From an uncultured Desulfurococcaceae archaeon (lineage in GTDB: Archaea; Thermoproteota; Thermoprotei_A; Sulfolobales; NBVN01): 59,048 bases of DNA. Shown here piece by piece: positions 14,286-31,544 of the stretch. Numbering within the stretch: position 1 is the stretch's first letter; each line of letters begins with the position of its first letter. Location: assembly GCA_964404265.1 (NCBI GenBank), contig CAYOJG010000001.1:59112-118159 (forward strand), in the 5' to 3' direction. The position numbers and the translations under genes were made by a program. Below the pieces are notes generated by a model, which did not search any database, was not told the DNA's origin, and saw only the letters and a list, made by a program, of their open reading frames with translations.

Positions 14286-14838
14286 TTCTCCCGCCTCTAG
14301 GGTAGTTAATCACCTTCAATGCCTTGAATTGCGGGCCGCAAACCCTCTGTGTTTGAAGACATATGAAGCGTACTGTAGGTTCCTCGCCAGTGCCTACAGA
14401 TACCTCTATGGCTGGAGTTAGTGGGTCGGGAGGTTTCGGCACTGTTTTAAGGAGTGGTGCCAGGAAGTTCGCCACCTCCAGCTGCGTCCTTTCAGTAATT
14501 TTCTGGGGGTTAAGGACTATTGTCTTGATGTTGTAGGGTGTCTGCCCTCCCCGCATTTCTCTGAGGAGCTTCACACCAGTTATCTTCATGAGCGCTTTCT
14601 TCACTAGCCCTTCCTCGGTTGGTTCGTAGTGGACTATGGCTGAGGGGTTGCCTTTCTTCTCGAGAATCATCATTACTGCGTGAGCTTCATTGCGACGGGC
14701 TATTGAAGCCAAATCGTCTAGGGTTGCCTTACCTCTGTTGAAGCGTAGTGAGTTAGGTATGGCTTTAACTAGGTCTTTTATGAAGGATCTTGTTCTTCTA
14801 GAAGGCTCCCGTGAGGAGGTTATGATTACTTTGCTCAA
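14278..14838 (-). CDS. Brix-domain (Imp4-like) ribosome biogenesis protein
   Basis: 186 aa. N-terminus VIITSSREPSRRTRSFIKDL is typical of archaeal Brix proteins; superoperon context. Confidence 0.6.
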   Translation of the reverse strand: MSKVIITSSREPSRRTRSFIKDLVKAIPNSLRFNRGKATLDDLASIARRNEAHAVMMILEKKGNPSAIVHYEPTEEGLVKKALMKITGVKLLREMRGGQTPYNIKTIVLNPQKITERTQLEVANFLAPLLKTVPKPPDPLTPAIEVSVGTGEEPTVRFICLQTQRVCGPQFKALKVINYPRGGRND

Positions 14839-14845
14839 AAGAGGT

Positions 14846-15100
14846 TCACGCTTTACCTAGGACGCTTCTCCCTATCTCCGTGACGGGTTGGTAGGCACCG
14901 CCCGCAAACACGGTGCCGCATTTAGGACACTGCCAGAGCCCAACAGCTATCCTCTTCATAACAACTTTTGTTCCGCAGTAGGGGCATTCTACCTTAGCAT
15001 ACCTTTTCTCCATTACTTTCCTCCACTTCTTCCTTAGGGAGGATCCGTATCTTGCCCCAAACCGTCCGGAAATCTTCACGATCTTTGTTCTCCTTACCAT
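14846..15100 (-). CDS. rpl37ae: 50S ribosomal protein L37Ae (eL43)
   Basis: 84 aa; GRFGARYG start and a CPYCG...CPKCG zinc ribbon. Confidence 0.9.
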   Translation of the reverse strand: MVRRTKIVKISGRFGARYGSSLRKKWRKVMEKRYAKVECPYCGTKVVMKRIAVGLWQCPKCGTVFAGGAYQPVTEIGRSVLGKA

Positions 15101-15123
15101 TCTCCTCCTCTCCTAAACCTGTG

Positions 15124-16269
15124 TCATTCGCTTGGTTTTAAGCTTTCGGTTTCCTCACTTTCTTTTTCTAGGTCTTCTTCCGGCTTTTCTTCCTGTTCGG
15201 CCTCTTCCGCTTTTTCTTCTTCTGGGACGGCCGGGGCCTCCTCTTTTTTTGGGGGTTCCTCCTGCTGGGGCTCGGCCTCCTCCGGAGTAGGCTTCTCTTC
15301 CTCCGGCTTCTCCAGCTCCTCCTTCTCCACTTCCTCAGCTTCCTCGCTCGGTACCTCCTCCTCTAAGGGTGTTTCCTCTACTTCCTCAGTCTTTTCCTCA
15401 GCCTTCTCCTCTTCTGCCTCCTCGGCAGCCTCTGCGGGCCTTTGGACGACCTGCGTCACTTTCTGAATCATTTCCTTCCCTTTCTCTATTGCTATTTCTG
15501 CTGCTTTGATTGCTTCTTCCTTAGTTATGGATGCGAGTCCAGCCTTCTGTATTCCTGCTATTACCCCATCCTCATCGACAGCGATCATTATTTTGGAGTC
15601 CAGCACGCTTTCCTCTTCCTGGTCGGGATCCACTATTAAGGCATCCTTTATCTTCCCTATCGTGACAGTCACAACCTTCTTCCTCAGCGGTAGTTCGCCC
15701 ACGTATGTTGACTTATCTATTAGTACCTGCTCGTCCTCAGTTATTTCGAACTTAGGTATCTTCGCCGTCATCAATGCTGCTAGGGTGCCTATGGATGCTG
15801 CGTCCGTCAGGTTGCCGTCGTGGTCCAAGACATAGATATCTATCCAAACCATCCACACTTTCTTGCCTGGGATTATTGCGAGCTTCTCAAGCTCTATTGC
15901 GTGTGTCTCCCTTATCGACCTGTCAATAACTCTGGCCAGCTCGATAGCGTTCTCGTCTGGTGGACCGGGCTCGAAGACAGGTGAGGCCATCGGGACGAAC
16001 TCGGCCGAGACCACAATAACTCCCTCGTTAGGTGCGTCTGAGTAGGGTGTCCCTACCTCCATCTTCACACCTACTAGGACCTGCGTGTTCCCTAGCTTGA
16101 CGTAGGCCGAGCCGTCTGCTTTAGGCAGGTAGTTAGGTATTATGGTGAGTTTCCTGTAGTCCTTTAGGCCGCGGCCGTCGAGCCTCGTTCCTTTCTTCAC
16201 TATGGCCGCTATGGTTTCTGCCTTGAGTTTAGGTATTATGTAGTCCGGTGTTGAGGGTGTTAACGACAT
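15124..16269 (-). CDS. rrp42: exosome complex component Rrp42 with a 105-aa acidic C-terminal extension
   Basis: RNase PH-like domain (LDGRGLKDYRKL ... GSAYVKLGNTQVLVGVK) in roughly the first 275 aa, then an E/K/P-rich tail. The start overlaps the rrp41 stop. Confidence 0.85.
   Translation of the reverse strand: MSLTPSTPDYIIPKLKAETIAAIVKKGTRLDGRGLKDYRKLTIIPNYLPKADGSAYVKLGNTQVLVGVKMEVGTPYSDAPNEGVIVVSAEFVPMASPVFEPGPPDENAIELARVIDRSIRETHAIELEKLAIIPGKKVWMVWIDIYVLDHDGNLTDAASIGTLAALMTAKIPKFEITEDEQVLIDKSTYVGELPLRKKVVTVTIGKIKDALIVDPDQEEESVLDSKIMIAVDEDGVIAGIQKAGLASITKEEAIKAAEIAIEKGKEMIQKVTQVVQRPAEAAEEAEEEKAEEKTEEVEETPLEEEVPSEEAEEVEKEELEKPEEEKPTPEEAEPQQEEPPKKEEAPAVPEEEKAEEAEQEEKPEEDLEKESEETESLKPSE
15127..15441 (-). 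repeat. low-complexity E/K/P-rich coding tract (Rrp42 tail)
   Basis: Top strand is runs of ctcctc/cttcttc. It translates to RPAEAAEEAEEEKAEEK...EETESLKPSE, with 105 aa counted by hand. Confidence 0.8.
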
Positions 16270-19276: not shown

Positions 19277-20278
19277 ATGGTTGAGTTGATTGAGTCTATG
19301 CGTTCGGGCGGTGTGGCCGTTGTTGGGGCTGGGGGTGCTGGAGATATTGTTTCAGCTTACGTGACCTGCAGGGTTCTTGAGGATCTTTTCGGTGTTTCTA
19401 GATGTATCCCTGTTGCGGTTCTTTGGGAGAGGTGGGTGCTGGATCCTTTCCCCGGCCCTATACCGAGGGAGGCTTTGAAGGGTGTTAGGGATAGTGATTG
19501 TGTTTGGTTGAGGCATGACTCATGGGTTGAGAGGCCTGGCTACAGGTTCGTTCCTCAGGCATCCATTATTGCTAGGTACGCGGGTGTTGAGGTCCCGGGC
19601 ATCGTTGCTGATGAGGGGCTTTCAGGGTTCAAGAAATGTCTTAAGGAAGTCACTGATTCTGGCTATAGGCATGTCATGGCCCTCGATGTGGGCGGTGACA
19701 TACTTGCGGAAGGACATGAGGAGTGGCTGTGGTCACCCCTCACAGACGCCTTAACACTGGCTGCGGTCGCGGATCTCGACTCCTCCGTAGGTGTTCTCGC
19801 GCCAGGAGCGGACGGGGAGCTTCCCGCTTGGTACGTCCTTGAAAGGATTGAGGAGGCTGCAGAGCTCGGAGGATACCTAGGCTCCATAGGTCTCTGGAGA
19901 GACCATGTAAGGATCTATGAAGAAATACTTCCCCACACAAAAACCGAGGCAGGCCTCATACCCTACAAAGCGCTGAAAGGCGAAATGAGGAAGAACCATA
20001 TAAGGGAAGGGTCAAGGGAAGTCGACATAAACCCAACATCCCCAATAATCTACATACTAACCACCCAAGCAACACTAAAACTCAACAAACTGGCAAACCA
20101 ACTCAAAAACACGGAAACCCTCCAACAAGCAAACCAAACAGCCCACAAACTACAAATACCCACAGAACTAGACCTAGAAAAAGAAATAGCGAAAAACCAC
20201 GGCACAGGCCCACAAACAAAACCAAACTGGACCAAAGCAAGAAACAACATACACAAACAAATAAAGAAACAACCATAA
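19277..20278 (+). CDS. DUF1152-like protein with a compositionally aberrant C-terminal third
   Basis: 333 aa with VVGAGGAGD ... ALDVGGDILAEG motifs recalled from DUF1152. From about nt 19925 the coding DNA is almost pure A/C and the protein becomes K/N/T/Q/H/P-rich. Confidence 0.5.
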   Translation: MVELIESMRSGGVAVVGAGGAGDIVSAYVTCRVLEDLFGVSRCIPVAVLWERWVLDPFPGPIPREALKGVRDSDCVWLRHDSWVERPGYRFVPQASIIARYAGVEVPGIVADEGLSGFKKCLKEVTDSGYRHVMALDVGGDILAEGHEEWLWSPLTDALTLAAVADLDSSVGVLAPGADGELPAWYVLERIEEAAELGGYLGSIGLWRDHVRIYEEILPHTKTEAGLIPYKALKGEMRKNHIREGSREVDINPTSPIIYILTTQATLKLNKLANQLKNTETLQQANQTAHKLQIPTELDLEKEIAKNHGTGPQTKPNWTKARNNIHKQIKKQP

Positions 20279-20313
20279 AACACTTAAAAACCAAACAACC
20301 ACAATAAAGAAAC
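19925..20313. other. extreme A+C-rich top-strand block
   Basis: Hand count of 20041-20100: A28 C21 G3 T8. There is an abrupt onset inside the DUF1152-like ORF, and the block ends at the G-run preceding the tRNA. Confidence 0.85.
20261..20313 (+). repeat. two copies of ATAAAGAAAC (20261-20270, 20304-20313); candidate TATA-like elements upstream of the tRNA
   Basis: Exact 10-mers read from the sequence. A third copy lies at 21504-21513, also immediately 5' of a GC-rich RNA-like segment. Confidence 0.5.
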
Positions 20314-20364
20314 GGGGGGCCAAAGCAGCGGGGTGGGGTAGCCAGGCAGCCCGCGGGGCTCATA

Positions 20365-20388
20365 GGAGCCCGGGCGGCCCGGCACCTA
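20365..20388 (+). other. candidate 24-nt intron at the canonical 37/38 position
   Basis: GGAGCCCGGGCGGCCCGGCACCTA lies between CTCATA and ACCCC. It contains a CCGGG-CGG-CCCGG hairpin. No canonical BHB could be drawn by hand. Confidence 0.4.
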
Positions 20389-20421
20389 ACCCCTAGACGG
20401 CCTAATTCAAGCGTGGAAGTT

Positions 20422-21477
20422 ATGAGCAAAACCTCAAGATGCGTTGAGGAGAGTATTCGTGGAATAACAAACTGCTTTTCTTCTATTGCTAAGGGTGAAG
20501 TCCTACAGATTTGCTGCTTCCAACCAAAGAATGATGATGTAAAACCTCTGCTGTTGAAAGCTTTAGGATTAATTCTCACAGATGGTAATCTCTCCGCACT
20601 CCTTAAGGGATACAGAACTATAGTCTTCCGAGGAGTGAATGAATCGTCAGTTCAATCTATTAGCAAAACATTTCTTCAACTGGGTTCATGCATAAGAATC
20701 AGAAATTATTCTCCTAACGTGGAAAAATTCGGTGTCCCCTCCTTTCAAGTTAGTGTCTTAAGCAAAGGGTCCTTCAGGCCTTTGAAGGAAGAACTCATTA
20801 AACTGCTGAAATCCGTGTTTGAATCCCCTCTTTCTCTCTTTTCTCGATTATCGACTAGGGCTTCTGCTGCTTTTCTAGCAGGGATCCTTGACGGTGATGG
20901 ATATGTTGGGAAAGAGAAGAGATATATTTCTATAGCGCTAAAGAGGAGTTCAAACAAAGGAAGAATTATTCATGAATTTCTTCGATACGTAGAAGCAGTT
21001 GGACTTATTTCTGTCGGAAAATATACAGGTCCACCTAAATATGAAGTAGTTATAACCTTCCCATCTATAGACTATGCCAGATTAGTTTCTGAATATGTTT
21101 ACCATCCTTTGAAGAGGGAGAGATTCCTTAGATACCTTAGAAATGTTGAACGTAGCCGGTACTGTGGTACATCAATAGAGCAGTATAAGGCTATCCTGAT
21201 ACATGCTTCCTATGGTTATCTAATGAAGAAAGGAAATAGTGCTATCCTTGTTCTGTATATACCTGTAAGGCAAGCTAAGAAAGGATTAAGGTCAATAACT
21301 TCAGGAGGCATTCTTCCCAAACCTTTAGTCGCAGGAGGAAGATTAATGATCAAGGTGCCTAAGAAATGTATACCGAATCTGGCGAAGGCCCTAGAGCAAA
21401 GCGACACAAACAGAGTTAATGAGAAGATAGCTGAAGTAGTAAAGACGTATATTAAGGATTATGGTATGTCACCTTAA
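20422..21477 (+). CDS. double-motif LAGLIDADG homing endonuclease-like protein
   Basis: Two dodecapeptide motifs, LLKALGLILTDGNL and AAFLAGILDGDGYV, about 110 aa apart, plus a ~150-aa C-terminal extension. ATG at 20422; the ORF-track GTG is at 20413. Confidence 0.7.
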   Translation: MSKTSRCVEESIRGITNCFSSIAKGEVLQICCFQPKNDDVKPLLLKALGLILTDGNLSALLKGYRTIVFRGVNESSVQSISKTFLQLGSCIRIRNYSPNVEKFGVPSFQVSVLSKGSFRPLKEELIKLLKSVFESPLSLFSRLSTRASAAFLAGILDGDGYVGKEKRYISIALKRSSNKGRIIHEFLRYVEAVGLISVGKYTGPPKYEVVITFPSIDYARLVSEYVYHPLKRERFLRYLRNVERSRYCGTSIEQYKAILIHASYGYLMKKGNSAILVLYIPVRQAKKGLRSITSGGILPKPLVAGGRLMIKVPKKCIPNLAKALEQSDTNRVNEKIAEVVKTYIKDYGMSP

Positions 21478-21503
21478 CTAAAATATTTAAGGCGAGTTGT
21501 AAC

Positions 21504-21513
21504 ATAAAGAAAC
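21504..21513 (+). repeat. third copy of ATAAAGAAAC
   Basis: Exact match to 20261-20270 and 20304-20313. It sits 2 nt upstream of the 13-nt GC-rich segment GCCGGGCCGCCCG. Confidence 0.5.
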
Positions 21514-21578
21514 AGGCCGGGCCGCCCGCCTCGGAGATACACCCTTCAAGGGGTCTGACCCGAGGTCGGTGGTTCAAA

Positions 21579-21602
21579 ACGGGCTGTAAAGGCCCGGGAA
21601 AG
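21579..21602 (+). other. 24-nt intron in the T-loop (about position 59/60) of tRNA-iMet
   Basis: GGTGG-TTCAAA[ACGGGCTGTAAAGGCCCGGGAAAG]T-CCACC. The intron has a CGGGC/GCCCG hairpin. A relaxed bulge-helix-bulge is drawable: T-stem, AGT bulge, TTC/GAA helix, AAAA bulge, hairpin. Confidence 0.6.
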
Positions 21603-21622
21603 TCCACCCCCCGCTACCACAA

Positions 21623-21646
21623 AGAGAAGCCCCCCACCACTTCTCT
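21623..21646. terminator. hairpin between the tRNA 3' end and the convergent protease gene (possible bidirectional terminator)
   Basis: AGAGAAG-CCCCCCACCA-CTTCTCT: a 7-bp stem with a short T-run following on each strand. Function is inferred only. Confidence 0.25.
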
Positions 21647-21649
21647 CCT

Positions 21650-22320
21650 TTGTTCAAAGAAACAAGAGATTGTGCAGACAAGTTCTCTTCCCCTATTTTC
21701 TTTGGTTTGTGTGTTTTGTGGGGTGTGTTGGTGTTGGTATTGGGCCTGGTATGTATTCTACTGTTGGTCTTGCTGGTTTTTCTTGTGGGTATAGTTCCAT
21801 GAGTTGGTATACTTCTTGGGGTAGTTGTGTTTTTACTTTTAGTCCTATTTCTTGTAGGTCTTCTGCGGTTATTGGCCAGTCGTGTGTGTAGGTTCCTTCG
21901 ACTAGTTTTTGTATTGCTTTCTGTATTTGTTGTTGGTTTAGTTTTCCTTGGAGGAGTTTTGTTACTAGTTGTTTTGTTTGGTTGAGTGCTTTTTGGGCTA
22001 TGTCTGCTAGGATTAGTGTTTGGTCGCTTACTTTGTCTGTTCCTTTTTGTTTGACTGCGTTTATTATTGAGGGTGCTGGGTATTGGCCTTGCTGTGTTGT
22101 TAGTTGTGGGTCTACTGGGCCTAGTACTGCGTCGGGGTCCATCCATATTTCGTCGGCTGCTAGTGATATGAGGGTTCCTCCGCTCATTGCGTAGTGGGGG
22201 ATTATCACTATTTTCTTTGCTGGGTGTCTTTTGAGGGCTAGGGCTATCTGTGACGCTGCCAGTAGTAGGCCTCCCGGCGTGTGGAGTATTAAGGCTATAG
22301 GTGTTTCGGGGGGTGTTGAC
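21650..22320. other. extreme G+T-rich top-strand block
   Basis: Hand count of 21721-21780: G22 T28 A4 C6. It covers the 3' two-thirds of the minus-strand protease gene, whose coding strand is therefore A/C-rich. Confidence 0.85.
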
Positions 22321-22580
22321 CTTATTGCCCTAAGGACCTGTTCAGAGTCCTCGATATCTATGAATCTGTATATAGGTATGCCTAGGAGCGAGATCTTCTC
22401 CTGCCTATGGATCATGGTGATTACTTTAGCACCGAGCCTCCTCTCAAGAGCCCTGATTAGGGAGGCCCTAGCGTTCTTAAGCGACTGGTACTTCATGTAG
22501 GGCGTTACGAAAGTTATGAAGATCCATATGAGGAAAAACATCCAAAGCAGGTCCCCGAACGTGGGTGAAGCATCCGCCAA
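21693..22580 (-). CDS. Clp-fold (SDH/DUF114-type) membrane-anchored serine protease-like protein
   Basis: 295 aa. An N-terminal TM segment, then VITMIHRQE...LILHTPGG...HYAMSGGTLISLAADEIWMDPDAVLGPVDPQL, typical of the ClpP/crotonase-fold SDH family. Confidence 0.6.
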   Translation of the reverse strand: MADASPTFGDLLWMFFLIWIFITFVTPYMKYQSLKNARASLIRALERRLGAKVITMIHRQEKISLLGIPIYRFIDIEDSEQVLRAIRSTPPETPIALILHTPGGLLLAASQIALALKRHPAKKIVIIPHYAMSGGTLISLAADEIWMDPDAVLGPVDPQLTTQQGQYPAPSIINAVKQKGTDKVSDQTLILADIAQKALNQTKQLVTKLLQGKLNQQQIQKAIQKLVEGTYTHDWPITAEDLQEIGLKVKTQLPQEVYQLMELYPQEKPARPTVEYIPGPIPTPTHPTKHTNQRK

Positions 22581-22611
22581 TCAAACCACCAATAAATAAT
22601 GAAGGGATGAA

Positions 22612-22956
22612 CTATTTACCTTTCCCACCCAGCCACCTCTCGAGACCACCCCCGGAAGGCCTCCCACCCCTAGAAACCTTAGCGGAGATCTCCCCAATAA
22701 GGGAGTCCCAAGACCTCTCCCCGGAAGCCCAAGCAGCGACAGCCCCCTCCAAACCGGCCATAAGCCTCAGAAACTCCGGCCAAGAAACACCTGAAGCTGA
22801 AAGCTGATCCCTCCAGAAACCCCACAAATACTTAGGCAACCTATTACCTAGCCAAACAGCATACCTAGGGCTGACGCCTGCCCTAACCAACTCAGCAATA
22901 AACTCCTTAACATCTCGAGGTTCTGGAGGAGTAGGCAACCCACCCAAACAAAGCAC
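22612..22956 (-). CDS. hypothetical protein
   Basis: 114-aa ORF, G/W/L/R-rich because its coding strand is the G+T-rich strand here. No motif recognised. Confidence 0.4.
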   Translation of the reverse strand: MLCLGGLPTPPEPRDVKEFIAELVRAGVSPRYAVWLGNRLPKYLWGFWRDQLSASGVSWPEFLRLMAGLEGAVAAWASGERSWDSLIGEISAKVSRGGRPSGGGLERWLGGKGK

Positions 22957-23035
22957 CTAGTAAATAATACGTAAAACACGAAAATAAAGACACAACGTTA
23001 AATTAACGCACACAAATAATGAATAAGGGAAGGGA

Positions 23036-23893
23036 ATGCCGGCCAAACCGAAGAAACTACACATAGGCCCAGCAGGCATACCCATATCAACCAAGAAGAA
23101 GTCCACGCCTGAAGGCGTCAGAAGGGTTGCTGAACTAGGCCTCGACGCCATGGAGATAGAGTTCGTCAGAGGAGTTAGAATGAGCCCCAAACTAGCTGAA
23201 GAAACAAGGAAAACAGCTGAAGAGGCCGGCGTCATGCTGACAGTGCACGCACCCTACTACATAAACCTCCTAAGCCCAGACGAAGAGAAGGTTAAGGCAT
23301 CAATAAAAAGAATAATGGACTCAGCGAGAGTAGGGTACCAGGCAGGGGCATGGTCAGTTGTTTTCCACCCAGGATACTACGGGAAAACAGACCCGGAAAC
23401 AGCGACACGTAAAGTAAGGGAAATCCTGAAGCAGATATCGAGACAGCTAATAGATGAAGGCCTCGACATATGGGTAAGGCCTGAAACTATGGGAGGCCTA
23501 GCAGAATACGGGTCCCTAGAAGAACTTCTTCAGGCGGTTGAAGGAATAGAGAAGATCTCCGTAACGATAGACTTCGCCCACCTATACGCAAGAACGCTAG
23601 GAAAATTCAACACCTATGAAGAATACGAAGCAGCACTCCAGAAAATAGAGGAAATCCTAGGGAAGGAAGCGCTCAGAAACATGCATATCCACATCTCAGG
23701 GATGGAGTACGGACCTAGAGGGGAGAAAAGACACCTAACACTAAGCGAAACAGAGTTCAACTGGAGGGACGTACTCCAAGTACTGAAAGACTACGGAGTT
23801 AAAGGCGTAATGATATGCGAATCCCCAATCCTTGAAGAGGACGCGCTAATACTAAAGAAAACCCTCGCAAAACTGAAGAAAAGAAGAAAATAA
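23036..23893 (+). CDS. endonuclease IV-like (AP endonuclease family 2 / xylose isomerase-like TIM barrel) protein
   Basis: 285 aa. LDAMEIEF..., HAPYYINL, VVFHPG, RPETMG and IDFAHL resemble the metal-ligand blocks of endonuclease IV. Confidence 0.6.
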   Translation: MPAKPKKLHIGPAGIPISTKKKSTPEGVRRVAELGLDAMEIEFVRGVRMSPKLAEETRKTAEEAGVMLTVHAPYYINLLSPDEEKVKASIKRIMDSARVGYQAGAWSVVFHPGYYGKTDPETATRKVREILKQISRQLIDEGLDIWVRPETMGGLAEYGSLEELLQAVEGIEKISVTIDFAHLYARTLGKFNTYEEYEAALQKIEEILGKEALRNMHIHISGMEYGPRGEKRHLTLSETEFNWRDVLQVLKDYGVKGVMICESPILEEDALILKKTLAKLKKRRK

Positions 23894-24133
23894 CTCAACA
23901 CCTAATCTTTTCATTACCCTCAAAACAGATTCCGTACCTCTCAACAGCCTCACAAAACTTCTCAATAGGTATGAAGGCGGTCGCCCCTGAACGCAGCCTA
24001 ACGAAAACAGACCTACCAACAACCCTGATCTCTGCCTCCTCACACACAACAACCACCGAATAAAAATAGATAGATAACTAAAAATAACTCAATGAGTTAA
24101 GAACTGAAGAAACTTCGGCGGAAGCTACTGAAG

Positions 24134-24577
24134 CTAATTAACCCTCCTAGCCCTCTTACCGAGCCTGGCCTCCCTCAAATACTGGATAGCCGCGGAGATA
24201 CTGCCCCTAGACTCAACTATAGGCCCCCACCTAGTCCTGAACTTCCTCGGAACCAAAGGCCTCACCCTCTTCTTCAACCTCCTGGGAACATAGCTAGCTT
24301 CCATACCCCTCAAACCGAAGGAACCGTCAATCATCTCAACAACCTCATCACGCTCAATAAGCTTCACCAAAACCTTCCTCAACCTATCCTCACCTGCCAG
24401 GCCGCTGAGCTCCTTCCTCAACTCCTTCCAAGTCACTGGACGCCCCTTCCTCCTAATAATGTCCTTAACCATCCTCTCAAGCTCCTCATCGTCAGGAGCC
24501 CTCATCACCACAACATCCTCATCCTCATACACAACCTCAAGATCCCTCTCCTCACTCCTTCTCTTATTTAAGGCCAT
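24134..24577 (-). CDS. hypothetical protein (basic; possible winged-helix)
   Basis: ATG at 24577 preferred over the ORF-track start at 24685, because an AT-run (24591-24603) lies just upstream. No family recognised. Confidence 0.45.
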   Translation of the reverse strand: MALNKRRSEERDLEVVYEDEDVVVMRAPDDEELERMVKDIIRRKGRPVTWKELRKELSGLAGEDRLRKVLVKLIERDEVVEMIDGSFGLRGMEASYVPRRLKKRVRPLVPRKFRTRWGPIVESRGSISAAIQYLREARLGKRARRVN

Positions 24578-24703
24578 ACCATTCACCCCGTTAATATATA
24601 TATCGCAAAAACCATATATAAACCTAAACAATAGAACAGCCCCACCACCAAGAGATAACGCCCTTTTAAGCAGTGCACACCTCAAAGAATAAACGGTGAG
24701 TAA

Positions 24704-24991
24704 ATGAAGCAGCTAACAATAGTCGCAACCATACCGCCCCACACAGACGCAGCAACCCTTAGAAAAATCCATATGATTAAGGCATTCCTCCAAGAAGAAA
24801 TAGGTGTGAAGGCAAACCTCGTAGTAATAGACGGCGAAGGGAAACCCAGAATAATCGCGATGGATGAGGTAATAGACCTCAACGAAGACCTGAACACGAT
24901 AATACATAAAATAGCTGAAAGTATGGCCTACGACCTATCAGACCCCAACTTCCTAGACAAAGTGGCGATAGGGGCGACAGGAAAAGAATGA
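24704..24991 (+). CDS. hypothetical protein
   Basis: 95-aa ORF preceded by GGTGAG, a Shine-Dalgarno-like sequence. Confidence 0.45.
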   Translation: MKQLTIVATIPPHTDAATLRKIHMIKAFLQEEIGVKANLVVIDGEGKPRIIAMDEVIDLNEDLNTIIHKIAESMAYDLSDPNFLDKVAIGATGKE

Positions 24992-25126
24992 AAAACGAGT
25001 TTACGCACTCGAGAAATTCGATTATCTAACCGAATAAAAAACCTAAAAAAGATAACCCAATATTTTAATATAGATATAGTAAATTTATAAACCTCAACTT
25101 AACATAATTATGGTAAGGTGTAAGCG

Positions 25127-25837
25127 GTGCTGACCGATGAAAGAATATTTGCCATAGAGCTCCTCAAATCCTTCAAAAAGATATTCAAGTACCGCGACCT
25201 AGAAGAAATAACGGGACTCCCCGCCCCGGCCCTATGGAGATACATAAACATGAAGATAATGCCCTCCGCGGAAAGGGCGCAGGAACTCGTTGAGAAACTC
25301 ACACAGCCGAACGTAATCGACAGAATATTCCGAGACAACATAATCGTTGCTGGGGAAAACCTCTACAACTTATCCAAAATTATTTACAGCCCGCCAATGC
25401 TGAAGATCTTTGCATACCTAGCCTACAGAGAGTTCCTAAGATACAACATAACGGCTGTAGTGACTGTGGAGGTGGATGGAATACCTGTAGCGGTTAACGT
25501 GGCGAGCGTTCTCGACACCTCCCTAGTGATAGCTAGGAGAAGGCCAGAACTCGGGATAAAGGACTACTACCAGACAAGCTATCTGGCGAGAGATCCTCCA
25601 GCAGTAATAAACCTCTTCCTCCCAACACACTCACTCAACATAAACGACAGAGTGCTGATAGTTGACGACCTCCTACACACAGGGAGGACGTCCTCAGCCC
25701 TCCTCAAACTGATAAGGATGGCTGGAGCAACACCCATAGGCCTCTTCTCAATAATAGGTGTAGGTAAATCCTGGGAGAAGATGCTTAAGGACCAGCTCGA
25801 AAAAATCTATGTCGTTAAATACCTCCCCGGTGAGTAG
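25127..25837 (+). CDS. phosphoribosyltransferase-domain protein with N-terminal HTH-like region
   Basis: PRPP-binding motif VLIVDDLLHTGRTSSA in the C-terminal half. GTG start. Confidence 0.6.
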   Translation: MLTDERIFAIELLKSFKKIFKYRDLEEITGLPAPALWRYINMKIMPSAERAQELVEKLTQPNVIDRIFRDNIIVAGENLYNLSKIIYSPPMLKIFAYLAYREFLRYNITAVVTVEVDGIPVAVNVASVLDTSLVIARRRPELGIKDYYQTSYLARDPPAVINLFLPTHSLNINDRVLIVDDLLHTGRTSSALLKLIRMAGATPIGLFSIIGVGKSWEKMLKDQLEKIYVVKYLPGE

Positions 25838-26729
25838 CCTGCTTAAGAGTGCAGTCCACGCCTACGCAGCAGCACTCCTCATAGAGGCTCTTGCCCCCCG
25901 CAAAATAAGCACAGTCAGCCACATCAAGGGGGTTAAAGACCTAACCATAATTAAGTTCATCTACACATACCCCTACCTACTAAAACACTTCACCGAACTG
26001 GCAGAAAGGGCGCTTAAGGAAGAACCCATCAGAATGGGGGAGTCAGTCAAAGAAACCATCAAACAAATAATACAAGACCCAAAAATACGGACAAACACGG
26101 CGTTAGGCTACCTAATTCTCGCCACCCCCGCTGCCTACGTAGTGTTCAGACACATAGCGGCTGAGGGGAGCCTAGCTAAACCGGTGGAGAAAGTGATTAA
26201 GGAAGGCGGACCGCTGATTAAGGACCAGCTGCAGAAAGAACCCGGCGAAGACCTGTACGAAGGCATAAGGCTTGCGAAACAGAAACACCTAGGCATATAC
26301 TACGGAACAATCCCCGATATAGCTGAGGGGGAGGTCCCTGTAAGCGTGTGGGAGGTCCTGCAGAAATCAAGTTACGACGACCAAGTCAGCAATGAGGTGG
26401 TTAGGAACTACCCCATAACTCTGGAAACATACAGGAAACTGCTTCAATACAGAGAGAGCGAGCTCCTAGAAGGAATTAGGGAAACCCACAAAGAAATACT
26501 CAGCCGCTACCCAGACACCCTGGTAACTAAAACCCACGGCTACCCAACAGCCGCCCTGCTTAAGGCAGTGGCTCAAAAAGAGGTGAACGCTGAGCTGTGG
26601 AGCGAGTGGATAAGGAAAAAAGGGATAAACCCGGGAACAACAAGCGACATCATCGCGGCTGCAGTAGCTCTCGCGGAGGTGGAGAAGGCTGCGTGCAGCA
26701 GTAATTCCGTCAGACATGATCATGACTGA
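25809..26729 (+). CDS. triphosphoribosyl-dephospho-CoA synthase (CitG/MdcB)-like protein
   Basis: 306 aa. The C-terminal NPGTTSDIIAAAVAL resembles the CitG 'NPGTSADL' block. The N-terminal EALAPRKISTVS lies where CitG has TPKPGLVD. Similarity judged from memory. Confidence 0.45.
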   Translation: MSLNTSPVSSLLKSAVHAYAAALLIEALAPRKISTVSHIKGVKDLTIIKFIYTYPYLLKHFTELAERALKEEPIRMGESVKETIKQIIQDPKIRTNTALGYLILATPAAYVVFRHIAAEGSLAKPVEKVIKEGGPLIKDQLQKEPGEDLYEGIRLAKQKHLGIYYGTIPDIAEGEVPVSVWEVLQKSSYDDQVSNEVVRNYPITLETYRKLLQYRESELLEGIRETHKEILSRYPDTLVTKTHGYPTAALLKAVAQKEVNAELWSEWIRKKGINPGTTSDIIAAAVALAEVEKAACSSNSVRHDHD

Positions 26730-27282
26730 GGAGGAGCTGCGGAAACTCCTACGCCTCCTCCTCAACGCAGGCATTGAAGCCGCAATACTTCTCGGATTCC
26801 CGAACATACCCCTCATAAAGCCGCCGGCCGCTGAATCAATGAAAACACTGGTAGTGACAAGCATGCTTAACGACATCCAAGTAACTAAGAAAGGACGTAA
26901 ACATTCAATACTTCTCGACGGGAAGGTCAAGGAAATAAACGAAGTCACTGTAGGAGGGGTGGGGGGTGTAGACCCACACCAAAACATAGACGCCCTAATA
27001 AAGAATAGAGAAAAACCTGAAGTAATCATAAGCTACTTCCCGGCTAAGGGATGTGGGGACTACATCCCCCAACTTGATGTGAGGAAAGGTCTGGGAGAGC
27101 TTAAGGAACTCATCATTCATGTGAAGCCCGCCACCCTAATAACTGGAGGAACAACCAACGAGGAATGCAGAATGCATGAAACCCTAGTACTCACAGTCGC
27201 TAGAAGAAGCTACCTAATAATAGACCTTTTCAGTAATGGGGAGCCTGAAAGCTTCCGATGGTTAAAGCTCCCTAGCCATTAA
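26716..27282 (+). CDS. hypothetical protein
   Basis: 188-aa ORF overlapping the upstream gene by 14 nt (operon-like). No catalytic motif recognised. Confidence 0.45.
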   Translation: MIMTEEELRKLLRLLLNAGIEAAILLGFPNIPLIKPPAAESMKTLVVTSMLNDIQVTKKGRKHSILLDGKVKEINEVTVGGVGGVDPHQNIDALIKNREKPEVIISYFPAKGCGDYIPQLDVRKGLGELKELIIHVKPATLITGGTTNEECRMHETLVLTVARRSYLIIDLFSNGEPESFRWLKLPSH

Positions 27283-27759
27283 CCAAGCGTCCTCGCCGTC
27301 AAGGTAGTAGAACCTGATCCTCCGAACCTTCCTAAAACCTAGCTTCTCATACATACTTATAGCTGCCTCGTTACTGACCCGGACCTCCAGATAAACCTCC
27401 TTAGCCCCGTAGAAGTTCTTAAGCCTATCCATAACCTCAACCATGAGTCTTGTCCCTATACCCCTCCTCCTGAACCCCGGGAGAACCGCGATACTGACGA
27501 TGTGGCCAACCATCTTAGGGAACGAAACCCTAACGAAGCCCAGCCTCCTCTCAACCCTAGACATGACGTAACCGACAATAGATCCCCCCACCTCAGCAAC
27601 AAGGAATGCCTTACCCCAAAGCCTGATGTGGTCCTTCCAGAAATACTCCGGGTAATGCTCCCTCAAAGTAGTCATGTTTATACCTATGACTGCGTCAAGG
27701 TCCTCCTCCCTAGCCTCCCTAATCACGACATCACTTCCCGCACCCATCAGCACACACAT
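27262..27759 (-). CDS. rimI: GNAT N-acetyltransferase (RimI-like)
   Basis: Acetyl-CoA motif RRRGIGTRLM. ATG at 27759 preferred because an AT-rich promoter-like tract lies at about 27770-27800. The ORF-track start at 27930 would add 57 unlikely residues. Confidence 0.7.
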   Translation of the reverse strand: MCVLMGAGSDVVIREAREEDLDAVIGINMTTLREHYPEYFWKDHIRLWGKAFLVAEVGGSIVGYVMSRVERRLGFVRVSFPKMVGHIVSIAVLPGFRRRGIGTRLMVEVMDRLKNFYGAKEVYLEVRVSNEAAISMYEKLGFRKVRRIRFYYLDGEDAWLMAREL

Positions 27760-27803
27760 CTCTTTAATAACAAATAAGGAATTAAAATAAATAGGTAGGC
27801 GGA

Positions 27804-29045: not shown

Positions 29046-29914
29046 GGATTAAGGCACCCCTACACGTAACTGGGTTCTGGATACCCTTCATATATCCGGA
29101 CCCAGTGATAACGGGGTCAATAGGGGCCGGCCTGCTTCTATGCCCGCCAGCAACCATCAAGACAGGTACCCGAATAACTACGGTCAACGGTGTTAAGGCA
29201 GGGGAAAACATAAGGAAAACTATTCAGAGAATACTCAAAACCGAAAACGTTAACGCGGAAGTAAAGAGCCCTGCAGAGCTGGGTGAAGGATTCGGGATGA
29301 GTGCAATCCTCTCCATAGCGCTTGCCGCGGACGGCCTTCAGAGACAATCAACCTGCTGCAGTGAAGAGGAGATAGGGAGGACGGCCCACCTAGCTGAAGT
29401 AATGAACAGAACAGGCCTAGGAGACGTAATATCCATAATGACCGGCGAAGGACTTGTGGTGAGGACCAGGCCTGGTCCTCCAGGAATCGGTGAAACATTC
29501 AGCATCCCCCTCAAAGAAGAATTAAGGATAGTGTCGGTCACCACGGGGGAGATTTACACCCCAAAAATGCTTGAAAGCCTCGCAGGGAAAATAAGAAGGT
29601 TCGGCAGGGAAGCAATGGAGAATTTCCTGCGGAACGAAACCCTTGAAAACTTTCTAGAAACCGCCAGGAAATTCAGCATGAAGACAGGTATGCTTCCCCA
29701 ATACCTCAAGGAACAGTTGAGGAGGCTGCAGCCCTACATAAGGAAAGGGCTTGTTCTAGGGTACTACAGGAAAAAGAATGTCCTCATTATCGTGGCGGAG
29801 AAATCAGGTGCCATGGAAATAGCGGATAATGTTAAGGACCTAGGCAAAACCAGAGTATTTAGGCCCTGCACCCAAGAAAGATTTGAGGTAACACCAAATG
29901 ATAAAAATACCTAA
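29042..29914 (+). CDS. pantoate kinase (archaeal GHMP-family)
   Basis: GHMP motif GEGFGMSAILSIALA. The 4-nt overlap with coaBC and position next to phosphopantothenate synthetase match the archaeal CoA pathway. Confidence 0.6.
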   Translation: MRIKAPLHVTGFWIPFIYPDPVITGSIGAGLLLCPPATIKTGTRITTVNGVKAGENIRKTIQRILKTENVNAEVKSPAELGEGFGMSAILSIALAADGLQRQSTCCSEEEIGRTAHLAEVMNRTGLGDVISIMTGEGLVVRTRPGPPGIGETFSIPLKEELRIVSVTTGEIYTPKMLESLAGKIRRFGREAMENFLRNETLENFLETARKFSMKTGMLPQYLKEQLRRLQPYIRKGLVLGYYRKKNVLIIVAEKSGAMEIADNVKDLGKTRVFRPCTQERFEVTPNDKNT

Positions 29915-31518: not shown

Positions 31519-31544
31519 TAAGAATACTAGCCCCCATAAACTAA

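Follow-up and report, generated by a model that had tools for sequence, protein, structure and literature searches.

Strand-asymmetric base composition on both sides of an initiator tRNA-Met gene follows the state of its homing-endonuclease cassette in a hyperthermophilic archaeon and its relatives

The window analysed here is a stretch of 59,048 nucleotides from an uncultured Desulfurococcaceae archaeon, in which two convergent genes, encoding a DUF1152 protein and an SDH-type ClpP-fold serine protease, lie one on each side of an interrupted initiator tRNA-Met gene (Table 1). Synteny of the DUF1152 gene is conserved in relatives, and for the protease 8000 homologues were found. The tRNA gene was missed in situ by both ARAGORN and Rfam. 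When spliced, its counterpart in the related locus L134 was called as tRNA-Met(cat); it has A1:U72, and its anticodon stem contains three G-C pairs. A search against Rfam gave no group I intron signal. The ORF encoded in the large intron matches Pfam PF14528 (25.7 bits, cut-off 22.5), carries the motif LAGILDGDGYV and is 31-35% identical to the ORFs found at the same site in the related loci L006 and L059. It is unskewed and AT-rich (GC 0.39 vs 0.48 for the window; M3 0.49), and cassettes across the related loci have a GC of 0.35-0.44, 6-10 points under that of their own loci, and an M3 of 0.40-0.51. TATA-like A/T runs facing outwards were seen at 20279-20313.

Table 1. Features of the tRNA-Met locus and composition blocks around it (window coordinates)
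Feature	Coordinates	Strand	Details
DUF1152 gene	19277-20278	+	333 aa; Pfam PF06626, 263 bits, profile positions 2-294 of 295
Outer-left block	19277-19897		top strand G+T-rich; MK skew -0.25; third-position A/C 0.14-0.30
Inner-left block	19898-20313		top strand A+C-rich; DUF1152 3' end and spacer up to tRNA promoter
Initiator tRNA-Met(CAT), interrupted	20327-21619	+	exact matches to exons common to all relatives
tRNA-Met 5' exon	20327-20364	+	
Large intron	about 20365-21557	+	
Cassette	20358-21693		without collinear counterpart in L001, a 95%-identical relative
LAGLIDADG homing-endonuclease ORF	20413-21477	+	intron-encoded; 354 aa from GTG; ATG at 20422
tRNA-Met T-arm exon	end 21578	+	
T-loop intron	21579-21602	+	24 nt
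tRNA-Met 3' exon	21603-21619	+	CCA encoded
Inner-right block	21666-22506		top strand G+T-rich; strong part 21693-22200, then ramp back to zero
SDH-type ClpP-fold serine protease gene	21693-22580	-	295 aa; Pfam PF01972, 391.6 bits, profile 9-278 of 286
Outer-right domain	22507-33123		top strand A+C-rich at synonymous sites, both gene orientations; strongest 22600-24700; far end placed by eye

BLASTN aligned L001 with the window at 19344-20357 and at 21694-26164 only, apart from an inverted match of 84 nt: the flanks are ~95% identical, whereas the cassettes are unrelated and the tRNA arrangement differs, L001 having a different endonuclease-like ORF and an inverted tRNA 3' half. Judged from such alignments, cassette turnover is fast. 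In L001, L002 and L004 the tRNA is split near position 30/31, and its halves have complementary leader and trailer sequences. Split genes for tRNA-Asp and tRNA-Lys are reportedly known in Desulfurococcales from the 2011 work of Chan, Cozen and Lowe. Split and permuted tRNA genes of Desulfurococcales, the archaeal order of our locus, and other Crenarchaeota have been described (Chan, Cozen & Lowe 2011, PMC3218864), among them a permuted tRNA-iMet in Thermofilum; unlike the cases in the available text of that paper, where the terms 'skew' and 'composition' do not occur, the split gene here is tRNA-iMet, and its halves are adjacent and convergent with endonuclease ORFs between them.

The top-strand composition (A+C-G-T)/N averaged 0.03 across the window in 200-nt windows (SD 0.138), and absolute values above 0.4 occurred in the 59 kb solely at 19901-20400 (+0.38 to +0.68) and 21701-22200 (-0.42 to -0.58). 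Against a background of 400-nt windows outside the feature (SD 0.108, range -0.24 to +0.39), the skew was +0.55 at 19913-20312 (z 4.7), -0.575 at 21700-22099 (z -5.7) and -0.325 at 19300-19699 (z -3.4). The base counts behind the two strongest blocks were A192 C112 G49 T36 on the left (19925-20313, skew +0.56) and A52 C70 G151 T235 on the right (21693-22200, skew -0.52), while the tRNA and its intron (20327-21619) had a skew of +0.01. The order and polarity of the blocks and the unskewed centre are thus as the initial annotation had described them, and its four 60-nt hand counts were all exact. Repeats were considered as a source of the skew and rejected, the repeat check having given weak low-complexity rows only.

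Cumulative skew changes sign at 19897 and 22506, with a minimum at each. The switch had been read as abrupt, within a few nucleotides at about 19920-19935; at third codon positions, however, it is not a step but a ramp over ~400-800 nt, the values on the left rising through 0.22, 0.28, 0.42, 0.50, 0.58, 0.68, 0.80 and 0.95. The outer blocks of the same description are peaks of larger domains. The outer-left block is the strongest stretch of a domain running on leftwards through proteasome and exosome genes, and on the right the third-position top-strand A/C content is 0.6-0.88 regardless of gene orientation out to ~33.1 kb (an end placed by eye, the comparators reaching ~5 kb), M3 being 0.56-0.69 in plus-strand and 0.17-0.35 in minus-strand genes. 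The inner zone occupies the first ~400-850 bp on each side; 0.4-0.9 kb from the tRNA locus the sign reverses, giving way to a weaker opposite skew over several kb, the outer zone, from ~0.9 kb to at least 5 kb. In the inner zone the strand running 5'->3' outward from the tRNA has nearly lost A and C at unconstrained sites, so that its complement is A/C-only; in the outer zone the other strand shows a like bias, more weakly.

The inner blocks take in the last ~125 codons of the DUF1152 gene and the C-terminal half of the SDH protease. Third codon positions were A36 C21 G3 T0 in the left block and A0 C1-3 G13-19 T38-45 in the right one, and four-fold sites on the coding strand were A55 C15 G0 T0 in SDH codons 150-295 and A18 C12 G3 T0 in DUF1152 codons 255-333; non-coding spacers are likewise skewed. 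The proteins themselves are shifted by the skew, from E to Q, from R to K and from V to I/A/T. Polarised changes at codon positions 1+2 went from G/T to A/C rather than the reverse in ratios of 17:1 and 43:8, as against 8:6 and 34:42 in the 5' controls. C-termini rich in K/N/T/Q/H/P are limited to the closest homologues: for SDH the fraction is 0.42-0.50 in these vs 0.30±0.045 in 120 homologues, and in DUF1152 some 12 clusters have 0.40-0.59, the mean being 0.25. The footprint is an imprint of mutation upon ordinary host DNA and not something inherent to the host proteins.

Across fourteen related loci, a set that is small and phylogenetically related, the pattern goes with how far the DNA lies from the tRNA locus and not with the identity or orientation of genes. 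In L006, HTH and ABC genes sit between SDH and the tRNA. There the corresponding SDH codons lie ~2.5-2.9 kb from the tRNA and count A3 C16 G28 T30, and the C-terminus of the new tRNA neighbour, an ABC-2 permease, counts A44 C11 G5 T1. A radical-SAM gene is the skewed tRNA neighbour in L133. In L135 the right neighbour, an AP endonuclease gene, is transcribed away from the tRNA and still has a G/T-rich top strand (-0.43 to -0.48), with an M3 of 0.23 over its first 100 codons and 0.64 beyond. The skew is real, is concentrated at synonymous and non-coding sites, and depends on position independently of gene identity and orientation.

Its strength varies with the endonuclease cassette. Inner skew, given as left/right, is about ±0.3-0.64 where the endonuclease is intact (window +0.64/-0.55, L001 +0.63/-0.59, L002 +0.57/-0.58, L006 +0.47/-0.51, L135 +0.29/-0.36), about ±0.2-0.4 where it has decayed (L004 +0.23/-0.42, L133 +0.40/-0.22), and about 0-0.2 where it is lost or absent, be it with an ORF-less intron (L129 +0.23/-0.23, L131 +0.07/-0.05) or no large intron (L134 +0.17/-0.03). 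The near-exception is L059, almost unskewed (+0.07/-0.17) with two intact endonuclease ORFs. Sister contrasts at 93-94% amino-acid identity (proteasome, SBDS) are provided by L110/L006 vs L131 and by L133 vs L134, and flank skew was absent from some 75 further archaeal tRNA-iMet loci that have no long intron. The outer skew is also endonuclease-associated, over at least 4-5 kb on either side: third-position A/C in left-hand orthologues is 0.25-0.46 in the strong loci window, L002 and L132 vs 0.43-0.58 in loci with a decayed, lost or absent endonuclease, and in the first five right genes it is 0.59-0.83 in the strong loci window, L002 and L128 vs 0.39-0.68. Outer asymmetry is mainly A<->G, C<->T being symmetric; in the L131/L110 pair the outer zone had 45 A/G vs 1 G/A differences. 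Among the sequences compared, skew is associated with cassette state, and this includes its decay in sister lineages that have no endonuclease.

Comparison of the window with L001 bears on how the inner blocks evolve. Overall divergence was 3.2% and 2.2% in the inner blocks and 8%, 5% and 4.2% nearby, and at four-fold sites it was 0.09 vs 0.19 in controls. The deficit lies in transitions (3/102 vs 26/225 in controls), while skew-neutral transversions stood at 0.05 in both. These figures fit a strongly transition-biased equilibrium; lowered inner-block divergence is also expected under constraint.

The best reading, which we consider somewhat probable, is that recurrent break repair, dependent on the endonuclease, has left the skew behind as a strand-specific footprint of mutation; that breaks occur, which strands they expose and by what chemistry these mutate is what we infer. 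Homing, replacement of the cassette, or cuts or nicks made by its enzyme would cause the locus to be broken and repaired by recombination again and again. Resection would expose the 3'-ended strands as long single-stranded tails, which at the growth temperature of a hyperthermophile would gain A->G and C->T changes, fixed at fill-in with the outer polarity. Repair synthesis, with one of the broken ends as primer, would cross the cassette and enter the opposite flank by a few hundred bases, so the newly synthesised strand in each flank would always be oriented away from the tRNA; error-prone D-loop synthesis, the new strand being transiently single-stranded and subject to the same transitions, would give the extreme inner polarity. 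The cassette, synthesised in either direction, would therefore stay unskewed, though drifting AT-rich. Purifying selection would preserve recognisable proteins while unconstrained sites reach saturation, and with decay of the endonuclease the pressure would end and the skew relax at the neutral rate. Endonuclease-triggered gene conversion is reportedly mutagenic, PMC5378118 giving a figure of 1400-fold from Hicks et al. 2010.

Several observations count against this reading. The intron already fills the target site in this genome, which leaves frequent cutting hard to explain, and yet four-fold sites at ~97-100% would need a local directional rate at least ~30x the reverse, and hence probably many events. 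L059, with two intact endonuclease ORFs, has near-zero skew. In two-ended repair the new strand should anneal to the other tail, where lesions could be repaired faithfully, so the mechanism offered for the inner zone is not compelling. A far exceeds C at four-fold sites (55:15), where pure transitions predict ~1:1, and an outer asymmetry dominated by A<->G departs from what deamination would produce by uncatalysed chemistry alone. Many of the amino-acid changes need transversions, as E to Q needs G->C, although these may be two-step paths. Strand damage during break repair had already been suggested in the initial annotation; the relatives favour that part of it, since skew tracks cassette state, but simple deamination of the tails would account for the outer polarity only.

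Given its dependence on position and its association with the cassette across loci, the skew is hard to reconcile with protein-level selection, with tRNA transcription or with a fixed origin of replication. That the DUF1152 and SDH genes owe it to ordinary selection on protein sequence or codon usage is practically out of the question: both proteins match their Pfam families end to end, but the bias shifts inside a single gene, is present in non-coding spacers, and is opposite at the orthologous L006 codons ~2.5 kb from the tRNA, and the L006, L131 and L134 comparisons contradict it. Distant orthologues with the same amino-acid bias had been named in advance as a sign of such selection; when tested, they lacked it. 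Outward transcription or R-loops from tRNA or cassette promoters would leave the outward-running non-template strand single-stranded and deaminated, by read-through on one side and divergent or antisense transcripts on the other, and would agree with the inner polarity on both sides. Split arrangements do put the endonuclease ORF downstream of the 3'-half gene, pointing at the DUF1152 end, the L135 endonuclease ORF is antisense and points left, and the A/T runs at 20279-20313 are TATA-like and face outwards. We nevertheless think this rather unlikely, because the tRNA gene of L131 and L134, intact, without endonuclease and presumably expressed to the same degree, has unskewed flanks, L129 has little skew, and the intron and endonuclease ORF, at least as heavily transcribed, are unskewed at every locus (M3 0.40-0.51); moreover, the left block equals the right in strength without an obvious leftward unit in the window, and the opposite-sign outer zone, several kb in both gene orientations, is left unexplained. 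A replication geometry, with a local initiation site (inner) inside a fork-convergence zone (outer), or in one version with outward replication restarted at the cassette from a break or R-loop primer, would explain why the inner polarity is that of a bacterial-type origin and the outer that of a terminus, and why outer skew is indifferent to gene orientation as replication skew is. It is very unlikely, since the centre is a fast-changing endonuclease cassette without a conserved non-coding core or a left/right switch of its own, the called, Pfam-annotated neighbours in related loci include no initiator gene, the inner tract is just ~0.4-0.85 kb and outer skew fades within roughly 10-18 kb, and sister lineages lacking only the endonuclease have lost the skew. 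The initial annotation's tRNA transcription and local initiation zone are both disfavoured on these grounds.

Two further explanations involve the mobile cassette. Selection or biased transmission at its level could have shaped co-converted flanks into homology arms: with two non-pairing bases per strand they would not fold and would thus aid strand invasion and annealing in the heat, other possible benefits being T-run terminators and polar recombination signals. The lowered window-L001 divergence in the inner blocks, directional transversions alongside transitions, a tract length in agreement with typical co-conversion lengths and the overriding of host protein sequence all speak for it. We judge it unlikely, as it requires selection on hundreds of single sites, gives no reason for the opposite multi-kb outer zone, and leaves L059, with two intact endonucleases, without such arms; skew-neutral transversions at the background rate, with a deficit in transitions only, are what a biased mutational equilibrium predicts. 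Alternatively, the inner blocks may be flanks co-converted during homing from an already skewed donor lineage. Close relatives have clearly swapped the cassette and a portion of the tRNA, the inner blocks are unusually alike in the window and L001, and exon-flank co-conversion is a textbook by-product of homing (PMC5378118, available text). This too is improbable: it merely shifts the problem to the donor, which would need identical neighbours across different lineages, in each gene the skewed part has kept its collinearity and homology with the remainder, and the outer zone far exceeds co-conversion tracts in length. The same skew lies on non-orthologous neighbours (ABC-2 permease, radical SAM, opposite-orientation AP endonuclease) and so must arise in place; replacement of the gene 3' ends by foreign DNA, as proposed earlier, cannot be the source of a skew that re-forms on any adjacent gene, though co-conversion may spread it.

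We found no published description of such a footprint, and known systems resemble it in part. In yeast, work by Gordenin, Malkova and colleagues is said to have revealed hypermutation coordinated by strand, both in the single-stranded DNA of resected double-strand breaks and in the nascent strand of break-induced replication; at the break the mutated strand reportedly changes over, with the 3'-ended tail hit after resection and the nascent strand, which runs away from the break, hit during D-loop synthesis. Hits on the tail strand match the polarity of our outer zone and hits on the nascent D-loop strand that of the inner zone, but the yeast cases are single-event clusters in experiments or tumours, usually with added mutagen or deaminase, whereas here an evolutionary steady state, fixed in natural lineages, is seen in base composition. 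Replication GC/keto skew is also an orientation-independent keto/amino asymmetry with a sign switch at a point; the present skew is local (hundreds of bp to few kb), far stronger, switches twice in nested fashion and depends on a mobile cassette. Transcription-associated mutagenesis of the non-template strand likewise gives A->G and C->T on one strand, but here polarity follows the tRNA locus and not which strand encodes the affected gene (L135), and the heavily transcribed intron is unaffected.

Closest in setting are the mobile introns of yeast mitochondria, with mobility-associated diversity gradients at exon boundaries (Repar & Warnecke 2017, PMC5378118). As far as the available text goes, there too the effect has its centre where an endonuclease intron is inserted and fades with distance, is tied to mobile and not immobile introns, and has co-conversion or mutagenic repair after endonuclease cleavage as candidate causes. 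It consists, however, of raised SNP density over tens of bases, compared with saturated strand-asymmetric composition over 0.4-0.85 kb, a sign reversal and a multi-kb outer zone here, where neighbouring host genes of a hyperthermophilic archaeon are affected instead of the interrupted gene; 'strand bias' is absent from that text by term search, and its mechanisms section mentions none. Bulge-helix-bulge (BHB) introns often hold LAGLIDADG homing-endonuclease genes (PMC6125680, available text), and our locus resembles the archaeal rRNA BHB introns that host I-DmoI and I-PorI in having a LAGLIDADG ORF inside a protein-spliced intron. Unlike the rRNA introns, the tRNA host here is flanked by protein-coding genes with neutral sites, and the footprint on the flanks is therefore visible.

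The layout of genes and tRNA shows that the two blocks of extreme composition adjoining the tRNA are the 3' ends of two real convergent genes plus spacer: a DUF1152 gene on the left and a gene for an SDH-type ClpP-fold serine protease (SDH) on the right, each A+C-rich on its coding strand. Between them lies an initiator tRNA-Met gene with a cassette, an intron or insert carrying a homing endonuclease (HE) ORF. The HE ORF of the window matched PF14528 (LAGLIDADG_3) with 25.7 bits (cut-off 22.5) and has a LAGILDGDG motif, and homologous ORFs occupy the same site in L006 and L059, two of the related tRNA-iMet loci designated here by L numbers. A homologue search with the endonuclease as query returned the window's own protein alone; the relatives were obtained via the two flanking proteins.

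Neither ARAGORN nor Rfam, the latter searched at the gathering threshold and at E≤1 over 13-34 kb, detected an RNA gene in the window or any of the related loci, and the tRNA gene was located by matching of exons. The obvious exon joining at window 21490-21578 leaves the anticodon stem one C short (…CTCATA + ACCCGAGG), and ARAGORN called the naively joined exons a defective tRNA. The spliced form of L134, which has the same exons, was called as tRNA-Met(cat); it has the A1:U72 pair, and its anticodon stem closes with three consecutive G-C pairs. The large intron of the window may use another splice site or contain an extra micro-intron; the T-loop holds a second intron of 24 nt. The contiguous 37/38-intron loci (window, L006, L059, L129 and L131) have in common a junction …TC[T/G]A[A/G]CCCGAGG with a small covarying hairpin in front of it. 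Directly 3' of the tRNA, a G/C-rich hairpin-like element (…GAGAAGCCCCCCACCACTTCTC…), kept in L131, L133, L134 and L135, resembles tRNA acceptor and T-stem sequence; it may act as a terminator, or it may belong to the target of the endonuclease or of recombination.

Features of the window and of related tRNA-iMet loci (coordinates are those of the respective sequence)
Feature	Locus	Position	Strand	Remark
DUF1152 gene, full length	window	19277-20278	+	Pfam model matched end to end
Initiator tRNA-Met(CAT) gene	window	20327-21619	+	exon matching
LAGLIDADG homing-endonuclease ORF	window	20413-21477		354 aa; inside ~1.2-kb tRNA intron, downstream of 5' exon
Hairpin-like element	window	21620-21650		3' of tRNA
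SDH-type ClpP-fold protease gene, full length	window	21693-22580	−	Pfam model matched end to end
Contiguous tRNA, 37/38 intron	window	20327-21693		also L006, L129, L131
Contiguous tRNA, 30/31 intron	L135	5066-7648		with antisense 397-aa LAGLIDADG-like ORF
tRNA split at 30/31	L001	984-2290		3' half inverted
tRNA split at 30/31	L002	5955-8121		3' half inverted
tRNA split at 30/31	L004	5925-7053		3' half inverted
Second-family cassette ORF	L002	6929-8101	+	~370-400 aa
Second-family cassette ORF	L001	1041-2162	−	~370-400 aa
Second-family cassette ORF	L135	5386-6579	−	~370-400 aa
DUF1152 as two ORFs	L129	6411-7393
DUF1152 missing	L004	5886-7252
HTH regulator and two-gene ABC transporter	L006	5952-8325		lineage-specific; = L110 62-877
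Shadow ORF	window	20050-20283	−
Shadow ORF	window	20103-20579	−
Shadow ORF	window	21574-22146	−
Shadow ORF	window	21650-21985	+
Low-M3 gene	window	24134-24685	−	M3 0.17
Low-M3 gene	window	30658-31518	−	M3 0.24
Third-position dip and rebound	window	14600-15300		0.20-0.28, then 0.57-0.65

Composition was expressed as the top-strand skew (A+C−G−T)/N and, within genes, as the third-codon-position A/C share of the coding strand (M3). On recount, the four 60-nt hand counts in the initial annotation were all exact. In 200-nt windows over the 59 kb the skew had a mean of 0.03 and an SD of 0.138, and an absolute value of 0.4 was exceeded only at 19901-20400 (+0.38 to +0.68) and 21701-22200 (−0.42 to −0.58). 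In 400-nt windows, where the background outside these regions had an SD of 0.108 and ranged from −0.24 to +0.39, the skew was +0.55 at 19913-20312 (z 4.7), −0.575 at 21700-22099 (z −5.7) and −0.325 at 19300-19699 (z −3.4). The flips, annotated initially as abrupt, turned out to be ramps in which third-position composition shifts gradually across 400-800 nt; the outer blocks annotated beside them are present, as the strongest parts of larger domains and not as self-contained blocks. Cumulative skew has its turning points at 19897 and 22506. With distance, the third-position A/C share goes from 0.95 to 0.5 within ~565 nt on the left and from 0.03 to 0.5 within ~850 nt on the right; skew also declines with distance from the insertion site in L002, L006, L110 and L135, and in every skewed locus the two sides of the cassette have opposite signs. 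Because the pattern recurs in independent assemblies (NCBI, JGI, ENA and Logan) it is not an assembly artefact; the sequences compared are metagenome-assembled throughout, and the loci are few and related to one another. The comparison covered the 59-kb window and loci of ~10 kb; complete MAGs containing these loci are GCA_054043265.1, GCA_054039135.1, GCA_054043105.1 and GCA_054024695.1. Repeats were rejected as the source of the skew, the blocks being no repeat arrays and containing weak low-complexity rows only. Elsewhere in the window, a third-position dip and rebound surrounds a 285-nt intergenic/small-gene region in which no RNA-family match was found, and probably reflects the ordinary codon bias of small ribosomal-protein-type genes.

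The skew is located at unconstrained positions, and the pressure shifts the proteins too. Four-fold sites comprised A55 C15 G0 T0 in SDH codons 150-295 and A18 C12 G3 T0 in DUF1152 codons 255-333, while top-strand third positions in 60-codon windows reached A36 C21 G3 T0 on the left and A0 C1-3 G13-19 T38-45 on the right. The C-terminal half of SDH has Q21/E7/R2/V9 vs Q6/E15/R8/V17 in an unskewed orthologue, and polarised changes at codon positions 1+2 towards A/C ran 17:1 in SDH and 43:8 in DUF1152, compared with 8:6 and 34:42 in the 5' controls. The same amino-acid bias in distant orthologues had been named initially as a mark of selection on protein sequence; K/N/T/Q/H/P-rich C-termini were found, among 120 homologues each, in only the six closest for SDH (0.42-0.50 vs 0.30±0.045) and in about a dozen clusters for DUF1152 (0.40-0.59 vs a mean of 0.25), so that, with the bias confined to few or closest homologues, mutation bias was left standing. 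In the DUF1152 homologues P0136, P0139, P0140, P0142, P0152, P0170 and P0171 the ORF ends in …GGQSSGVG and a stop, which is translated from the spacer and the very start of the tRNA gene (…AGC GGG GTG GGG TAG); the ORF runs into the tRNA gene because T-depletion removed its normal stop codon. The breakage of DUF1152 in L129 and its loss from L004 may be either damage by mutation pressure or the fate of a simply dispensable gene.

Skew was then compared with the state of the cassette, using for all loci the same measure, the 300 nt adjoining the tRNA on each side.

Skew of the tRNA flanks and state of the cassette in the window and related tRNA-iMet loci
Locus	Cassette	Left	Right
window	intact ORF	+0.64	−0.55
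L001	intact ORF	+0.63	−0.59
L002	intact ORF	+0.57	−0.58
L006	intact ORF	+0.47	−0.51
L135	intact ORF	+0.29	−0.36
L132	contig breaks in tRNA	+0.56
L136	contig breaks in tRNA	+0.39
L128	contig breaks in tRNA		−0.49
L004	decayed ORF	+0.23	−0.42
L133	decayed ORF	+0.40	−0.22
L129	ORF-less ~300-nt intron	+0.23	−0.23
L131	ORF-less ~300-nt intron	+0.07	−0.05
L134	without large intron	+0.17	−0.03

The flank effect is present with an endonuclease-bearing intron and absent without it, with one near-exception: L059 carries a pair of intact endonuclease ORFs, of which the larger shares 32% identity with that of the window, yet has skews of +0.07/−0.17, and its right side gives a hint only (M3 0.27 in the first 100 codons vs 0.47 in the rest). 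Among 120 metagenomic loci sharing the tRNA 5' exon, L110, of the L006 lineage, was the only skewed one. In the ~75 of them with an uninterrupted or short-intron tRNA-iMet gene the absolute skew stayed under about 0.25; a few isolated values, each on one side only, reached up to 0.33 but formed no matching opposite-sign pattern. In a proteasome-α plus SBDS tree the sister of L131 is L110 (93-94% amino-acid identity) and that of L133 is L134 (94%), and these two pairs provide two independent contrasts of cassette state. Since residues derived in the skewed clade (…AHK…) persist in L131, this locus probably lost its endonuclease and then relaxed.

The polarity is set by the tRNA locus, since the neighbours in L006, L133 and L135 are skewed whatever their identity or orientation. 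L006 and L110, its near-twin, provide a natural experiment, with an HTH gene plus an ABC transporter inserted between SDH and the tRNA; the orthologous SDH codons, now ~2.5-2.9 kb off, have the opposite bias (A3 C16 G28 T30), and the new neighbour, an ABC-2 permease, has A44 C11 G5 T1 and a Thr-rich tail at its end. The right neighbour in L133 is a radical-SAM gene with a skewed 3' end. In L135 the gene in this place belongs to the AP-endonuclease family and points away from the tRNA; here spacer and first 100 codons have a G/T-rich top strand (−0.43 to −0.48; M3 0.23) and the sign is reversed beyond (M3 0.64). In the first few hundred bases the G/T-rich strand is the one running 5'→3' away from the tRNA, and further out it is the one running towards it.

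The outer zone was compared in orthologous genes up to ~5 kb from the tRNA on each side. The top-strand third-position A/C share on the left was 0.25-0.46 in the strongly skewed window, L002 and L132 vs 0.43-0.58 where the HE is decayed, lost or absent, and on the right 0.59-0.83 in the window, L002 and L128 vs 0.39-0.68; L006, with its HE intact, was intermediate on the right (0.49-0.76). The right-hand domain of the window extends over both gene orientations (M3 0.56-0.69 on + and 0.17-0.35 on −). The distal asymmetry in the L131/L110 pair is almost wholly A↔G (45 vs 1), with C↔T balanced (27 vs 26); this pair was rejected as a forward spectrum, because the derived skewed-clade residues kept in L131 mean that the differences may be relaxation of L131 and not the forward process. 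Two minus-strand genes of the window have very G/T-rich coding-strand third positions, with 30-codon M3 minima of 0.07, and we read both as belonging to the outer-right domain, with a coding-strand effect added, the more distant one, ~9 kb from the tRNA, being a case from the window only.

The flanks of the window and L001 are ~95% identical, without collinear homology across 20358-21693; in the L001 cassette the LAGLIDADG-like ORF is unrelated and lies on the opposite strand, and the L001 tRNA is split with its 3' half inverted. Cassettes are therefore replaced faster than 5% divergence accrues. Together with the intact ORFs, this rapid replacement is an indirect sign only that the enzyme may be active on intron-less alleles. 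They are themselves unskewed (M3 0.40-0.51), with a GC content 6-10 points below that of their own locus. Window–L001 divergence is 3.2% and 2.2% in the inner blocks vs 8%, 5% and 4.2% nearby, and the deficit at four-fold sites is in transitions only (3/102 vs 26/225), skew-neutral transversions being equal (0.05 vs 0.05). A deficit limited to transitions is expected at equilibrium when the directional pressure is strongly biased towards transitions; constraint would also fit the same data as the cause of the low inner-block divergence. The ~0-3% G/T at four-fold sites suggests that under such pressure the forward rate would be at least ~30x the reverse rate. Recent substitutions polarised between window and L001 with L002 as outgroup were too few, their fluxes balanced as at equilibrium, and the window–L002 skew-neutral transversion rate is uninformative because neutral sites are saturated.

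The structure of the initiator tRNA-Met gene is polymorphic among close relatives, window and L001 differing in it at ~95% flank identity. The split tRNAs of L001, L002 and L004 have convergent halves with complementary leader and trailer. To our knowledge, a split initiator tRNA with endonuclease ORFs between its halves has no report in Desulfurococcales. Split tRNA-Asp and tRNA-Lys were reportedly described there by Chan et al. in 2011. All three ORFs of a second cassette-ORF family share an …AG(I/A/V)(L/I)DGDG(T/A)I… motif; those tested gave no Pfam match at E≤0.01. Identity between the L001 and L002 members is 38%, and the L001 member shares this motif with the enzyme of the window but is otherwise unrelated to it. 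The three ORFs are presumably divergent LAGLIDADG endonucleases for the 30/31 site. A viral or plasmid vector for the cassette was rejected: the tRNA 20-mer matched one unrelated viral tRNA, and the endonuclease profile one weak (26%) relative with unskewed surroundings.

We infer that the pattern requires a process that spreads outwards from the locus. The inner polarity, in which the strand running away would be the one exposed or made, could come from the non-template strand of outward transcription, the lagging templates of diverging forks or a nascent D-loop strand (SDSA/BIR-type). Outward transcription driven by the tRNA and a fixed replication origin or terminus skew switch are nevertheless disfavoured, since in L131, L134 and L129 the tRNA still occupies the same chromosomal position, yet L131 and L134 lack the skew and L129 has only a weak one, an observation that also counts against the local initiation zone suggested in the initial annotation along with transcription. 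The intron and endonuclease ORF inside the tRNA transcript are unskewed, and the G+T-rich strand does not track the non-template strand of the affected gene: inner blocks in the DUF1152, SDH, ABC-2 and radical-SAM genes are A+C-rich on the coding strand, whereas the away-facing AP-endonuclease gene of L135 is G+T-rich, so that polarity follows the locus. As for an origin, the centre is a variable endonuclease cassette and not a conserved non-coding core, and no Orc1/Cdc6 was present among the called, Pfam-annotated neighbours in related loci.

We lean, with slightly more than even confidence, towards an endonuclease-dependent mutational footprint, and recurrent endonuclease-dependent break repair is the model that would cover most facts. 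Resection of the break would leave the towards-locus strands single-stranded, as in the outer zones; the 3'-tail polarity of 5'-3' resection agrees with these and is the reverse of the inner blocks. Repair synthesis leaving the cassette would generate the inner zone, each flank being synthesised in the 'away' direction only, and we propose that the cassette is unskewed and drifting AT-rich because it is synthesised in both directions. Endonuclease-triggered gene conversion is reportedly a strong source of mutations (Hicks et al. 2010, quoted by PMC5378118). That the footprint has this specific two-zone geometry we consider less likely than not. The window–L001 transition-specific deficit agrees with a single-strand-damage spectrum (C→T, A→G), whereas the A>>C excess, the directional transversions and the A↔G-dominated outer zone go beyond deamination alone, with polarisation confounded by convergence. 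The break-repair model has weak points: the target is already occupied in the genome, which makes the origin of frequent cutting a problem; the nascent strand is expected to anneal to the other tail, where faithful lesion repair is possible; A>>C at four-fold sites is left unexplained; the outer zone is dominated by A↔G; and L059 does not fit. A wider claim, to which we give somewhat less than even credence, is that a selfish HE cassette drives a previously undescribed strand-specific two-zone hypermutation, two-letter over an inner ~0.5 kb and opposite over several kb, which recodes or eventually destroys unrelated host genes and leaves a fixed record of the strands exposed in archaeal break repair. 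In a bolder version, the two-letter arms would be an adaptation of the cassette, serving it as homology arms free of structure.

Strand-coordinated mutation is known from single experimental events, both at resected breaks and during break-induced replication, and its polarities match those of the window locus. Of the published phenomena, the nearest one found is a gradient of SNP density at the exon boundaries of yeast mobile mitochondrial introns (PMC5378118), which, like the effect at the window locus, is tied to mobility and decays with distance; the paper reports neither saturation nor sign reversal, both of which the window locus has, and a term search of its text did not return 'strand bias'. 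'Skew' and 'composition' were likewise absent from the text of the split-tRNA Desulfurococcales paper PMC3218864, and we did not find the pattern described in literature on strand asymmetry, hyperthermophile deamination, co-conversion or tRNA-intron endonucleases. We class the phenomenon as break-repair or mobility-associated mutagenesis that is visible as a two-zone imprint fixed in base composition.

If the endonuclease link holds, the locus would be a natural steady-state record of recombinational-repair strand geometry in hyperthermophilic archaea, in which repair steps are hard to measure in vivo, and resection length, synthesis tract length and exposed strand would be readable as two length scales and two polarities. 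'Harmless' mobile introns would then carry a measurable cost in recoded neighbour proteins (Q21/E7 vs Q6/E15), lost stop codons and ORFs running into the tRNA. Convergent composition would mislead phylogenies and dN/dS for genes beside such loci; annotation would be misled by long false ORFs, and tRNA finders would miss the gene. An A/C-only or G/T-only strand has no TAA, TAG or TGA and so gives rise to long shadow ORFs, and those in the skewed blocks of the window are compositional artefacts.
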